Shown one piece after another: positions 21,004-22,938 of a stretch of DNA of 51,090 nucleotides. The stretch comes from Thermoleophilaceae bacterium (GTDB lineage Bacteria; Actinomycetota; Thermoleophilia; Solirubrobacterales; Thermoleophilaceae). A program made the translations under genes and the position numbers. The notes beneath the pieces were generated by a model. The model saw only the letters and a list, made by a program, of their open reading frames with translations. It did no database searches and had not been told where the DNA came from. Numbering within the stretch: position 1 is the stretch's first letter; the number at the start of each line of letters is the position of its first letter. The DNA lies in the NCBI GenBank assembly GCA_050998555.1, contig JBPCQB010000110.1, forward strand, positions 1-51,090, read 5' to 3'.

Positions 21004-22938
21004 CTAGCCGGCGCCCAGCGCCTGCCGGAGCTCGCGCACCAGGCGCCCGCGCTGGCGGCCGTCGAGGCCGTGCGCGTCCGCGCCGGAGGCGAGCGTGTCC
21101 TCGGTCGAGCGGTGGCAGCCCACGCAGTAGAGGCCGTAGCGGCGCATGATGCGGTCGGCCTGCTCTCCGTAGCGCTCGATCAGCTCGCCCACCACCGAGG
21201 ACTCGGAGATCCCGTCGTGGTCCACGACCACCGACCCCGGAGGCCTAGCGAAGTACGGCGCCTGCAGCAGCCGCCAGAAGCCCGCGTGGAAGACGTCCGG
21301 AGAACGCGAGAACCGGCACCAGTAGCCGATGTGGGCCTCGTCCCAGGAGAGGTTGTCGCGCACGATCCGGGCGAGCACCCCGGCCGGCACCTCCATGGTC
21401 AGGTTGCTCTCCTCCGGAGGCGCGTCCAGCACGCTCAGCCGCCCGCCGGACACCTCGAAGTGCGTCTCGATGTCCTCGGCCCCGTCAGCGGCGCGGATGC
21501 GCACGGTGAGGTCCTCGCAGAAGGCCATCTCGGGCGTCTCGTTCAGCCGCAGCAGGTAGGCGGCCACCTCTTCGGAGGTCAGATCGGAGGCCCGCGGGTG
21601 ATGGCGCTCGAAGACCTCGGGGTCGTACCGGCGCTCGAGGTACTCGAGCAGCGCGTCGGGCTCGTGGCTGTCCGGGAAGGTGCGCGGACCACGCTCGAAC
21701 GCCTTGGTCGCGGTGTCGAAGGAGTCCCCGGGCAGGAGGTCGAGCACGGTCACATCGCTGTGCTCGAAGGCCCGGGCGATGTCGCCGACCGTGTTACGCG
21801 GGAGGTCGCGAACGAACTCGCGGTGGGAGGGGTGCCACAGCGTGAAGTGCGACGCGAAGGGCAGCAGGTAGCGACCCCCGTAGAGCGTCATCGCGGACTG
21901 CAGCATCTGGACCGCACCGCCGCGTGAGCGCTCGAGGATGTCGCGCTTTGCCTCCCGGTCGACGTGGCTCCACGTCATGGGGTAGCCGGAGGCCCCGGGC
22001 GAGAACGCCGAGGAGATGGCGTCGACCGGCGCCACGAGCGAGGCCACCCGCTGGTTCAGCCCCGCGTCGTTCAGGTTCAGCAGGCGGAAGCCGCCGAGGT
22101 CGAAAAGGACGATCGCGTCGTTCCACAGGCTCGCGGGCTCGAAGCAGGTGGCGGTGATCCCCGGTCCGATCTCGTAGGTCTCGCCGAAGGCCATCGGCCG
22201 CACGTCCTCGAAGCCGAGGGCGTCGAGCTCCGCGACCATGCGGCGGTTCGGGAAGTCCGGCACGAAGACCGGCGTCGAGCGGTCAAGGCGCTCGAGCGTG
22301 GGCACGTGGAAGTGGTCGGAGTGCTCGTGGGTGAGGCAGAGGGCGTCCGGGCGCAGCGTCGCGACGTCGACCGCCGGCGGCGGGAACTGGTCCCAGGCGC
22401 CGAGGAACGCGGGGCCGTCGAGCCAGGGATCGGTGAGGACCGAGAAGCCGTCGTGGGTGAGCTCGAGGCAGGCGTGGGCGTGGAGTCGAATGCCCACCCG
22501 TGCGTCCCGGCGGGGAGCCACGCGCGGCGGGGTGAACGGCGTGAGCGGCGTGCGCATCTCGGCGAACAGCCGCCCCTCGCGCAGCGTCACCGGGACGGCC
22601 GTGAGGCCCTCGCCCGGGGCGTTCACGCAGTCGCCGGTCCCGTGCTCGAAGCGCCACCCGTGCTTCGGACAGCGGAACCCCTCCCCGACGTCCTCGACCT
22701 CGCCGCCCTTGTGCGGGCAGACGGTCGAGAGGAGCCGGTACCCACCCGGGCCCTCCACGAGGAAGAACGACTGGGTGCCGATGCTCACCGGCGCGGGCAG
22801 GCGCTCGTAGCCCTCCACCGGACCGAGGTCCACCCCACTGCCGCGGGGCCCGGTCGGATCGGCCGGCGATGGGGAGTTGGGCACGCCTTCCTCGGGGAGG
22901 TTGGGAAGAGGTGTCTCGCTGGCGTCGAGGCGGGTCAT
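21004..22938 (-). CDS. CMP-N-acetylneuraminate hydroxylase (CMAH)-like Rieske / metallo-beta-lactamase-fold oxygenase with extra C-terminal DUF1858-like CxxC domain
   Basis: Rieske ligands are CPHKGG...FRCPKHGW. MBL-type LTHEHSDH. Blocks are colinear with mammalian CMAH as I recall it: HACLEL..DPWLDGPAF, GASGYPMTWS, PFASHF..HPS, WDEAHIGYWCRFSRSPDVFHAGFW. The final ~70 aa are YGLYCVGCHRSTEDTLASGADAHGLD. Confidence 0.85.
   Translation of the reverse strand: MTRLDASETPLPNLPEEGVPNSPSPADPTGPRGSGVDLGPVEGYERLPAPVSIGTQSFFLVEGPGGYRLLSTVCPHKGGEVEDVGEGFRCPKHGWRFEHGTGDCVNAPGEGLTAVPVTLREGRLFAEMRTPLTPFTPPRVAPRRDARVGIRLHAHACLELTHDGFSVLTDPWLDGPAFLGAWDQFPPPAVDVATLRPDALCLTHEHSDHFHVPTLERLDRSTPVFVPDFPNRRMVAELDALGFEDVRPMAFGETYEIGPGITATCFEPASLWNDAIVLFDLGGFRLLNLNDAGLNQRVASLVAPVDAISSAFSPGASGYPMTWSHVDREAKRDILERSRGGAVQMLQSAMTLYGGRYLLPFASHFTLWHPSHREFVRDLPRNTVGDIARAFEHSDVTVLDLLPGDSFDTATKAFERGPRTFPDSHEPDALLEYLERRYDPEVFERHHPRASDLTSEEVAAYLLRLNETPEMAFCEDLTVRIRAADGAEDIETHFEVSGGRLSVLDAPPEESNLTMEVPAGVLARIVRDNLSWDEAHIGYWCRFSRSPDVFHAGFWRLLQAPYFARPPGSVVVDHDGISESSVVGELIERYGEQADRIMRRYGLYCVGCHRSTEDTLASGADAHGLDGRQRGRLVRELRQALGAG

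Follow-up and report, generated by a model that had tools for sequence, protein, structure and literature searches.

This study concerns a stretch of 51,090 nucleotides from a Thermoleophilaceae bacterium (assembly GCA_050998555.1, contig JBPCQB010000110.1), hereafter the window, and a gene within it (positions 21004 to 22938, minus strand) whose product resembles CMAH, the animal enzyme that hydroxylates cytidine monophosphate-activated N-acetylneuraminic acid (CMP-Neu5Ac). As judged from its sequence, the protein is a genuine full-length member of the CMAH family, and it is placed in a bacteria-only sister subfamily, T1, outside the clade that contains the animal enzymes. Its gene lies among genes for sialic acid synthesis, and the same biosynthetic genes recur beside T1 genes in other bacteria. 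On balance, the gene probably encodes an O2-dependent hydroxylase that would convert CMP-Neu5Ac to CMP-N-glycolylneuraminic acid (CMP-Neu5Gc) and thus feed a sulfated, methylated cell-wall glycopolymer.

A full-length bacterial member of the CMAH family

The gene and the domains of its product are as follows.

21004..22938, minus strand: CMAH-like gene for a putative hydroxylase (T1 subfamily), recognised from a 644-aa open reading frame (ORF), GC content at third codon positions (GC3), Pfam, alignment to vertebrate CMAH and an AlphaFold2 model
22561..22797, minus strand: Rieske [2Fe-2S] domain, residues ~48-126, with ligands C74, H76, C90 and H93
21949..22497, minus strand: metallo-beta-lactamase (MBL)-fold catalytic domain, residues ~148-330 (Lactamase_B_2 and Lactamase_B_3)
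21244..21948, minus strand: CMAH-specific middle and C-terminal region, residues ~331-565, colinear with animal CMAH
21007..21210, minus strand: extra C-terminal redox-disulfide-type domain, residues ~577-644, with a CxxC motif formed by C605 and C608

Alignment by BLASTP brings residues 56-568 of the window protein alongside residues 36-568 of Sarcophilus CMAH (25% identity, E 2e-38), and the same residues, 56-568, align with residues 33-568 of gar CMAH at 26% identity (E 9e-42). The match to animal CMAH (137-147 bits) is colinear and extends to within ~10 residues of the animal C-terminus. Since these alignments span nearly the whole length of the protein, the similarity reaches well past the Rieske and MBL motifs; restriction to those motifs would have spoken against the full-length CMAH homology claimed in an earlier reading of this DNA (the original prediction). 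A mouse CMAH sequence served only to retrieve vertebrate CMAH entries named as such by their sources, and all comparisons use the retrieved entries.

The Rieske motif, CPHKGG...CPKHGW, falls within a Pfam PF00355 match at residues 48-110 (38.7 bits, cut-off 20.3). C-terminal to it, Lactamase_B_2 and Lactamase_B_3 match at residues 150-267, with the HEHSDH motif at residues 204-209, and the putative iron site comprises H155, D170, H204, H206, D208, H209, D274 and D291. Further CMAH motifs (HACLEL...DPWLDGPAF, GASGYPMTWS, PFASHFTLWHPS and WDEAHIGYWCRFSRSPDVFHAGFW) all align with vertebrate CMAH motifs, and the region from residue ~331 to ~565 includes PFA..F..HPS and the block W532-D533..I537-G538..R545.P547..F554-W555. 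The original prediction had described a 644-aa protein with a Rieske centre followed by an MBL-type HEHSDH motif, colinear with mammalian CMAH. Pfam and the motif positions agree with this domain order, and every motif that it quoted aligns with authentic vertebrate CMAH. The profile searches that it proposed gave a divided answer: Rieske PF00355 was matched, but no CMAH-specific family among the Pfam and NCBIfam models was. No CMAH sequence was found in the Protein Data Bank (PDB), in which the window protein drew weak Rieske and MBL matches only.

Conservation extends well beyond the cofactor ligands. When 10 bacterial and 6 vertebrate sequences are aligned, 51 columns show no variation; among them are the Rieske ligands, HxHxDH, DPW..G.AF, ASG.P, PFA and, near the C-terminus, the WD..IG..R.P..FW block. 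Over 135 aligned sequences, 28 of the 51 stay invariant, and all 135 have the four Rieske ligands (C74, H76, C90 and H93). At ten signature positions (S207, G252, T322, F361, H369, P370, P403, D533, H551 and Q559) the window protein matches animal CMAH, with which it also shares the order from Rieske to MBL and the spacing of conserved blocks. The animal enzyme differs from it in lacking the C-terminal CxxC domain and in receiving electrons via cytochrome b5 and b5 reductase, with no further fused domain; identity between the two is only 25-26%.

The C-terminal domain, missing from animal CMAH and from the T2 proteins described below, resembles NCBIfam TIGR03980 ('hybrid cluster protein-associated redox disulfide domain') at residues 579-637, with 36.6 bits, which is below the cut-off. 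Pfam DUF1858 matches residues 577-626 weakly (20 bits), and PDB entry 2k5e also matches the tail weakly. Both C605 and C608 occur in every one of 120 T1 sequences, and distant T1 members keep YCxxC. In an AlphaFold2 model built from the 135-sequence alignment (mean predicted local distance difference test score, pLDDT, 89.4; predicted template modelling score, pTM, 0.90), the tail is ordered, with pLDDT ~90, and residues 1-31 are disordered.

The ORF has a GC3 of 0.94 and a GC content at second codon positions of 0.49, as in real genes of the window, which is 73% GC throughout, and a 98%-identical copy of the protein occurs in an independent metagenome. No clear Shine-Dalgarno sequence precedes the annotated ATG, and the first 35 residues are unconserved. 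Because homologues begin at the position of a GTG codon, V36 (coordinate 22833), and residues 1-31 are modelled as disordered, the real start may be this GTG, which would give a protein of 609 aa.

Position of the protein within the family

The first homology search returned more than 338 relatives, of which the best 120 all come from bacteria or metagenomes and match the window protein over the full length at 46-98% identity; many of these 120 had been named automatically 'CMP-N-acetylneuraminate monooxygenase' by the Joint Genome Institute (JGI). An exhaustive search of 1.84 billion cluster representatives yielded 156 at E<=1e-30 and 933 at E<=1e-10, so the family is rare.

Three tiers of relatives were distinguished in a scan at one genome per species, complemented by tblastn and motif analysis. 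The tiers, and the locus counts given below, refer to the matches listed in that scan, which include neither the window's own genome nor Mycobacterium. T1 proteins (~610-660 aa) contain the Rieske domain, the MBL domain, the CMAH C-terminal region and a tail with an invariant CxxC; they are 35-57% identical to the window protein and score 92-152 bits (23-26% identity) against gar CMAH. T2 proteins (~560-575 aa) have the Rieske domain followed by the MBL domain, no tail and the same length as animal CMAH. They show full-length homology to the window protein (~134-153 bits, 22-28% identity) and score 167-356 bits against gar CMAH (27-39% identity). T3 proteins (~435-470 aa) begin with the MBL domain and have no Rieske centre.

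In a neighbour-joining (NJ) tree, which is a distance tree rather than a maximum likelihood tree (Poisson distances, 411 columns, 200 bootstraps), the window protein groups with T1 at 100% and the animal enzymes with T2 at 100%, including a grouping at 100% of the animals with a single T2 protein (locus L022). Rieske-first proteins split from T3 and NamH, the mycobacterial relative of CMAH, at 72%. T1 is approximately equidistant from T2 and the animals. The description of the protein as a homologue of animal CMAH thus stands as regards family membership, but not in the sense of strict orthology, as animal CMAH groups with T2. In keeping with this, a reciprocal best hit with vertebrate CMAH, which the original prediction had put forward as a check, was not obtained: T2 proteins reach 167-356 bits against gar CMAH, compared with 147 bits for the window protein.

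The residues of the metal site are shared by T1, T2, animals, T3 and NamH. The ASGxP motif and the W532/G538/R545/P547/F554/W555 block belong to the Rieske-first clade only and are missing from T3 and NamH. Most T1 members, like the window protein, agree with animal CMAH at the ten signature positions, whereas the T2 core does not; T1 and the animals may therefore have kept ancestral constraints from which the T2 core diverged. The T2 bacteria include Pannonibacter, Flavicella, Chitinophaga, Bradyrhizobium and an Enterobacterales metagenome-assembled genome (MAG). Their proteins differ from the window protein in lacking the CxxC tail and several animal/T1 signature residues and in grouping with animal CMAH.

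Some T2-like proteins (~565 aa) come from gastric Helicobacter, namely H. salomonis, H. baculiformis and H. vulpis (loci L030, L033 and L035; match at ~10001-11500). In these proteins HxHxDH has been lost, the aligned residues being S, R, S and C, and a pattern scan of the three found no Rieske CxH...CxxH. Such proteins without metal motifs may be pseudo-enzymes or may have been repurposed. Other Helicobacter MAGs and isolates (L015 and L016) hold T1-type genes.

A Neu5Ac-type locus around the gene

Three genes of sialic acid biosynthesis surround the CMAH-like gene.

17251..18069, plus strand: NeuA-type CMP-sialic acid synthetase (CTP_transf_3, 63.5 bits)
28462..29502, plus strand: NeuB, N-acetylneuraminate synthase (PF03102, 282 bits, with a SAF domain)
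29495..30745, plus strand: NeuC, hydrolysing UDP-N-acetylglucosamine (UDP-GlcNAc) 2-epimerase (TIGR03568, 380 bits, cut-off 236)

The best solved relatives of the NeuA-type protein are NeuA/CMP-Neu5Ac synthetases (60-68 bits, compared with at most 41 bits for KdsB). NeuB scores 371 bits with TIGR03569 (cut-off 400) vs. 280 bits with PseI, and 220 bits with the structure of Neisseria meningitidis NeuB vs. 161 bits with that of PseI. NeuC is closest to the epimerase domain of human GNE (253 bits), followed by LegG (184 bits) and WecB (67 bits). The location of the CMAH-like gene inside a neuA/neuB/neuC locus, as originally proposed, is borne out by these profile and solved-structure comparisons, which give the Neu5Ac type. 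All three neu genes are real, and the distances of 3 kb to neuA and 5.5 kb to neuB-neuC hold (~2.9 kb and ~5.5 kb).

No DegT aminotransferase and no PseB/LegB-type dehydratase was found in the window. Because these genes are lacking and NeuA, NeuB and NeuC are of the Neu5Ac type, the nonulosonic acid made at the locus is most likely Neu5Ac. The same two observations led to rejection of a legionaminic or pseudaminic acid (Leg/Pse) reading of the window, in which NeuABC are closest to sialic acid enzymes. A reading based on 2-keto-3-deoxynononic acid (Kdn) was likewise rejected: the locus encodes NeuC, and in Kdn the enzyme would lack an N-acyl group to act on.

Linkage to neu genes in other bacteria

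NeuB and NeuC, and usually NeuA, are encoded within 10 kb of the T1 gene at 9 of 18 loci, the window included. The other eight (L002, L003, L008, L009, L012, L013, L014 and L017) belong, together with the window, to hosts that include Vicinamibacterales (Acidobacteriota), Methylomirabilales, Alkalicoccobacillus and Lysinibacillus (Bacillales), Haliangium (Myxococcota), Bacteroidota, the window actinomycete and others. At L013, the T1 gene lies directly between neuB and neuC-neuA. Such linkage was found at 1 of 13 T2 loci and at none of 50 T3 loci (Fisher p ~1e-6 for T1 vs. T3 and 0.02 for T1 vs. T2). When 37 window proteins were tested, only NeuB, NeuC and NeuA recurred beside T1 genes. Two cultured strains, Alkalicoccobacillus murimartini DSM 19154 and Lysinibacillus sp. 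NPDC094403, carry a T1 gene beside neuBCA.

The L002 locus (ENA contig_4, 1.47 Mb; positions 1-21845) places its T1 gene within a Leg/Pse-type gene set, which comprises two DegT genes, a formyltransferase, a FemAB-like acyltransferase, NeuB, a NeuC-like epimerase, CTP_transf_3 and B12-binding radical-SAM genes. Some bacteria may accordingly make 5,7-diamino nonulosonic acids that are N-glycolylated or oxidised in another way.

T2 genes have a different setting: among genes of a housekeeping character (IleRS, MgtE, release factor), they mostly abut a gene for a ~230-aa S-adenosylmethionine (SAM) methyltransferase (L020:11544-12266, L022:3903-4601, L026:9166-9852 and L028:9147-9848). A partner of the same type accompanies the Brevibacillus T1 gene (L001:11858-12559). 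Beside T2 genes and the Brevibacillus T1 gene, hydroxylase and methyltransferase would thus form a two-gene module.

Proposed reaction and electron supply

It is reasonable to propose the following course of events. NeuC would convert UDP-GlcNAc to N-acetylmannosamine (ManNAc), NeuB would condense ManNAc with phosphoenolpyruvate to Neu5Ac, and NeuA would activate Neu5Ac to CMP-Neu5Ac. An external reductant would reduce the Rieske cluster (C74, H76, C90 and H93), which would pass electrons to the iron site of the MBL domain (H204, H206, D208, H209, D274 and D291). The iron site would then activate O2 and hydroxylate the N-acetyl methyl group of CMP-Neu5Ac to N-glycolyl, yielding CMP-Neu5Gc, and glycosyltransferases of the locus (PF13704-type members of glycosyltransferase family 2, GT2, and a KpsC-like protein being candidates) might install the product in a sulfated, methylated glycopolymer of the cell-wall type. 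Both characterised activities of the superfamily, those of animal CMAH and mycobacterial NamH, convert N-acetyl to N-glycolyl groups on nucleotide sugars (PMC6481270).

Among structural neighbours, no solved structure spans the whole architecture (TMq, a template modelling score, at most 0.31). Foldseek neighbours of the catalytic domain include FrsH and CmlA (E 6e-10 to 1.5e-8) and UlaG-type hydrolases. CmlA and FrsH are MBL-fold non-haem diiron beta-hydroxylases, and as such a precedent for an iron site that activates O2 within this fold. Ligand-type residues are conserved in the window protein; identity is only 17-20%. They differ from it in having no Rieske domain, in acting on amino acids tethered to carrier proteins and in their low overall similarity (template modelling score at most 0.35). 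The relation is best regarded as an analogy of mechanism, not family membership.

Classical Rieske non-haem iron oxygenases, such as KshA and phthalate dioxygenase, match in the Rieske part only (residues 52-111, E 0.004-0.09). A classical Rieske oxygenase was rejected as an identity for the window protein, whose catalytic domain has the MBL fold and not the Bet v 1/START-like fold with a 2-His-1-carboxylate iron site that marks that group.

The extra CxxC domain implies that electron supply must differ from the cytochrome b5 route of animals; to our knowledge, a cytochrome b5 system of the animal type is not to be expected in bacteria. Because the tail is unique to T1 and bacteria are without this route, the tail is the best candidate for an electron-entry module. 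It would probably replace the animal cytochrome b5 system as a module for electron entry or redox control, a proposal that is speculative.

Points against the proposed function and alternative explanations

Several points weigh against the assignment of the protein as a CMP-Neu5Ac hydroxylase. The function would have to be carried over the deep split between T1 and the animal-T2 clade at 25% identity; the electron donor is only a candidate, and the role of the tail is speculative. One review states that prokaryotes do not naturally synthesise Neu5Gc (PMC7845648), and neither biochemical characterisation nor product data for a bacterial CMAH-like enzyme were found, within an incomplete coverage of the literature. 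Half of the T1 loci listed, for example that of Brevibacillus parabrevis, have no neu genes within 10 kb. Two of the linked loci, L002 and L012, carry DegT aminotransferases, so the substrate there would be a Leg/Pse-type sugar, not Neu5Ac. Finally, the genes of T2, to which the nearest bacterial relatives of animal CMAH belong, mostly stand beside a methyltransferase in housekeeping contexts, so the family may have other substrates.

Several of these points favour the same chemistry on another substrate, i.e., on the N-acyl group of a Leg/Pse-type CMP-nonulosonate, on UDP-GlcNAc or UDP-ManNAc(A) produced at this locus, or at another position. In the last case, hydroxylation could prepare that position for O-methylation by methyltransferases encoded nearby. 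This explanation, the main alternative, is rather unlikely but deserves serious attention. L002 and L012 tie T1 to Leg/Pse-type gene sets, the loci without nearby neu genes are as numerous as those with them, methyltransferases abut T2 genes and the Brevibacillus T1 gene (three methyltransferases also occur at the window locus), and the WecG/TagA and UDP-sugar dehydrogenase genes imply other N-acetylated nucleotide sugars in the window. However, the only conserved partners in the window are NeuB, NeuC and NeuA of the Neu5Ac type, with no aminotransferase; the T1 signature residues are common to the animal enzyme that acts on CMP-Neu5Ac; and the window methyltransferases are not homologous, at E<1e-8, to those paired with T2 genes and with the L001 gene.

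It is quite improbable that the protein is not an oxygenase at all, with the MBL domain acting on a sugar intermediate as an esterase, lactonase or phosphodiesterase and the Rieske and CxxC domains serving as redox sensors. Hydrolysis is what most proteins of the MBL fold catalyse, the structural neighbours include UlaG, NAPE-PLD and further hydrolases, and the Rieske-less T3 paralogues keep the metal site. Nonetheless, the Rieske ligands are retained in every one of the 135 aligned sequences, both characterised Rieske-containing relatives (CMAH and NamH) are monooxygenases, and two diiron hydroxylases, FrsH and CmlA, rank among the best structural neighbours.

There is very little to recommend a NamH-type hydroxylase acting on UDP-N-acetylmuramic acid to make N-glycolyl peptidoglycan, as known from Mycobacterium and its actinomycete relatives. 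The host is an actinomycete, and NamH is distantly homologous to CMAH with the same two cofactor domains (PMC6481270, PMC10050696). NamH (the Rv3818 family of Mycobacteriales) shares with the window protein the Rieske and MBL HxHxDH modules, the metal-site residues and the reaction type proposed here. Its MBL (UlaG) domain is reported to be N-terminal and its Rieske domain C-terminal (PMC10050696), and the order in a NamH-family protein of Tsukamurella (529 aa, from a plasmid collection) is MBL (2-175), SCP2 (338-462) and Rieske (478-517), the middle part matching PF25451, 'Rv3818-like SCP2 domain', at 149 bits. In contrast, the window protein has the Rieske domain before the MBL domain and no PF25451 match at E<=0.1. 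Its similarity to NamH amounts to 63 bits in the MBL part only, with a non-colinear Rieske match, vs. 137-147 bits to CMAH; its genomic context is a neu and glycopolymer locus, not one of peptidoglycan genes; and T1 is present in phyla not known for N-glycolylmuramic acid. Membership in the NamH family was rejected on the permuted domain order and the missing SCP2_Rv3818 domain.

A decayed or silent relic without current function is hardly credible: decay does occur in the family, as the Helicobacter T2-like proteins that lost both metal motifs illustrate, but here the ORF is intact with its high GC3 (0.94), all cofactor ligands and signature residues are conserved, the operon is tightly packed (gaps of 35 bp and 12 bp), and a copy 98% identical exists in an independent metagenome.

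Relation to previous work and significance

Homologues of CMAH from two green algae and from ~60 prokaryotes, actinobacteria among them, had been recorded by Peri et al. 2018 and Simakov et al. 2015, with no analysis of their function (PMC5767959), and the T2-type proteins probably include the prokaryotic homologues that they listed. That prokaryotic CMAH-like genes are known only from surveys, as the original prediction held, fits the literature found (PMC5767959). In textbooks and recent reviews, CMAH is described as the only route to Neu5Gc (PMC7845648, PMC6481270, PMC5767959), a review states that no known microbe can synthesise Neu5Gc (PMC6481270), and a mass-spectrometric survey of microbial nonulosonic acids mentions glycolylation for animal cells only (PMC8157484). 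No report tying a bacterial CMAH-like enzyme to neu loci was found, within the same incomplete coverage. What is already known therefore comprises bacterial homologues listed in surveys and named automatically by JGI. What appears to be new is the distinct T1 subfamily with its fused CxxC domain, its conserved and specific linkage to Neu5Ac-type biosynthesis genes, and its separation from NamH and from the T2/animal clade.

A broader proposal is put forward tentatively: diverse environmental bacteria may make N-glycolyl nonulosonic acids de novo by means of a self-contained Rieske-MBL-CxxC hydroxylase that works without cytochrome b5, in which case Neu5Gc would not be a deuterostome invention. 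The product would be Neu5Gc at most loci and N-glycolyl Leg/Pse at some, and the proposal would cover soil actinomycetes, Bacillales, Acidobacteriota and Myxococcota. If true, the whole CMAH clade would have started out as hydroxylases of the N-acetyl group in CMP-sialic acids, and a bacterial enzyme in neuABC loci would overturn the rule that prokaryotes do not synthesise Neu5Gc. The window protein also bears on the origin of deuterostome CMAH. All humans make antibodies against the Neu5Gc antigen, and bacterial Neu5Gc glycans could then be an overlooked natural immunogen for them. Animal CMAH depends on membrane-bound cytochrome b5 and is hence hard to use; a soluble bacterial enzyme with its own redox module could serve for the production of CMP-Neu5Gc and for a first structure of the family. 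The claim is directly testable in cultured strains that carry T1 together with neuBCA.

Neighbouring genes and other features of the window

The CMAH-like gene is the middle one of a three-gene operon on the minus strand, flanked by oppositely oriented operons. Further features of this region are listed below.

22973..24214, minus strand: PF13704-type GT2 glycosyltransferase (Glyco_tranf_2_4, 63 bits), start probably near 24112
19321..20991, minus strand: 556-aa protein of unknown family, with an N-terminal signal/anchor and a Pro-rich linker
24244..28438, plus strand: fusion of a PIG-L deacetylase with a sulfotransferase, and two class-I methyltransferases (Pfam), in an operon with neuB
16221..19205, plus strand: operon of a methyltransferase, neuA and a PF13704 GT2 (Pfam and gene map), convergent on the CMAH-like operon
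39279..40712, plus strand: KpsC/KpsS-type 'Capsule_synth' transferase (PF05159, 67 bits), the best solved relatives of which are KpsC beta-Kdo (3-deoxy-D-manno-octulosonic acid) transferases

Within the three-gene operon, the GT2 gene lies upstream (35-bp gap) and the gene for the 556-aa protein downstream (12 bp). The downstream gene is translationally coupled to the CMAH-like gene. Its product is rich in Arg at the N-terminus and has a single hydrophobic segment, and its two C-terminal halves resemble each other and end in 'LD(R/H)FG...'; it had no match in Pfam, NCBIfam or the PDB and is possibly a surface protein associated with the glycan. Start and stop codons overlap in the genes upstream of neuB (24244..28438), and their operon is divergent from the CMAH-like operon. 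A promoter and terminator scan of 16-31 kb found nothing, being uninformative at 73% GC.

The remainder of the window forms a single extensive glycan locus, with six PF13704 GT2s, three DXD glycosyltransferases, GT4 (glycosyltransferase family 4) and GT2 enzymes, four sulfotransferase domains, TagA/WecG, a UDP-sugar dehydrogenase and RmlA/RmlB-like genes. To judge from the TagA/WecG gene, the glycopolymer may be anionic and linked to the wall. The closest named relatives of a dehydratase encoded in the window belong to Solirubrobacteraceae and Baekduia, which points to a soil actinomycete of the Solirubrobacterales type. Among the window proteins, no member of a classical sialyltransferase family was seen. 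The KpsC/KpsS-type family uses CMP-activated ulosonic acids, and the KpsC-like protein or the PF13704 GT2s may transfer the CMP-activated nonulosonic acid. The six PF13704 paralogues (Glyco_tranf_2_4, GT92-like) lie at 3208-8639 (minus strand), 18066-19205 (plus strand) and 22973-24214 (minus strand). Four of them are arranged head to tail, the last of the row being fused to a sulfotransferase, in a local expansion of this glycosyltransferase family.

The PIG-L-type de-N-acetylase fused to a sulfotransferase (24244-26238, plus strand) follows the same logic as the animal heparan sulfate N-deacetylase/N-sulfotransferase (NDST). Other sulfotransferase domains occur at 6600-8639, 8636-9595 and 35741-37390 (all minus strand), one of them fused to a GT2. 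The apparent product of the locus is a sulfated glycan, something unusual in an actinomycete.

Two further redox proteins are encoded in the window, a 352-aa [2Fe-2S] protein resembling bacterioferritin-associated ferredoxin (BFD; 12989-14047, minus strand) and a flavin-containing monooxygenase (FMO)-like flavoprotein or pyridine-nucleotide oxidoreductase (40713-42311, plus strand). They could supply electrons to the Rieske enzyme or act as additional tailoring oxidases; their genes are not conserved beside T1 genes elsewhere.

The neuA-CMAH-neuBC core is bordered at one end by a PIN/ribbon-helix-helix toxin-antitoxin pair (15548-16245, minus strand) and at the other by a Fic/DOC-family gene (30819-31199, minus strand), and a DUF234 ATPase is encoded at 14105-15487. 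The core, whose composition profile has no GC break, may be a mobile or recently acquired block.

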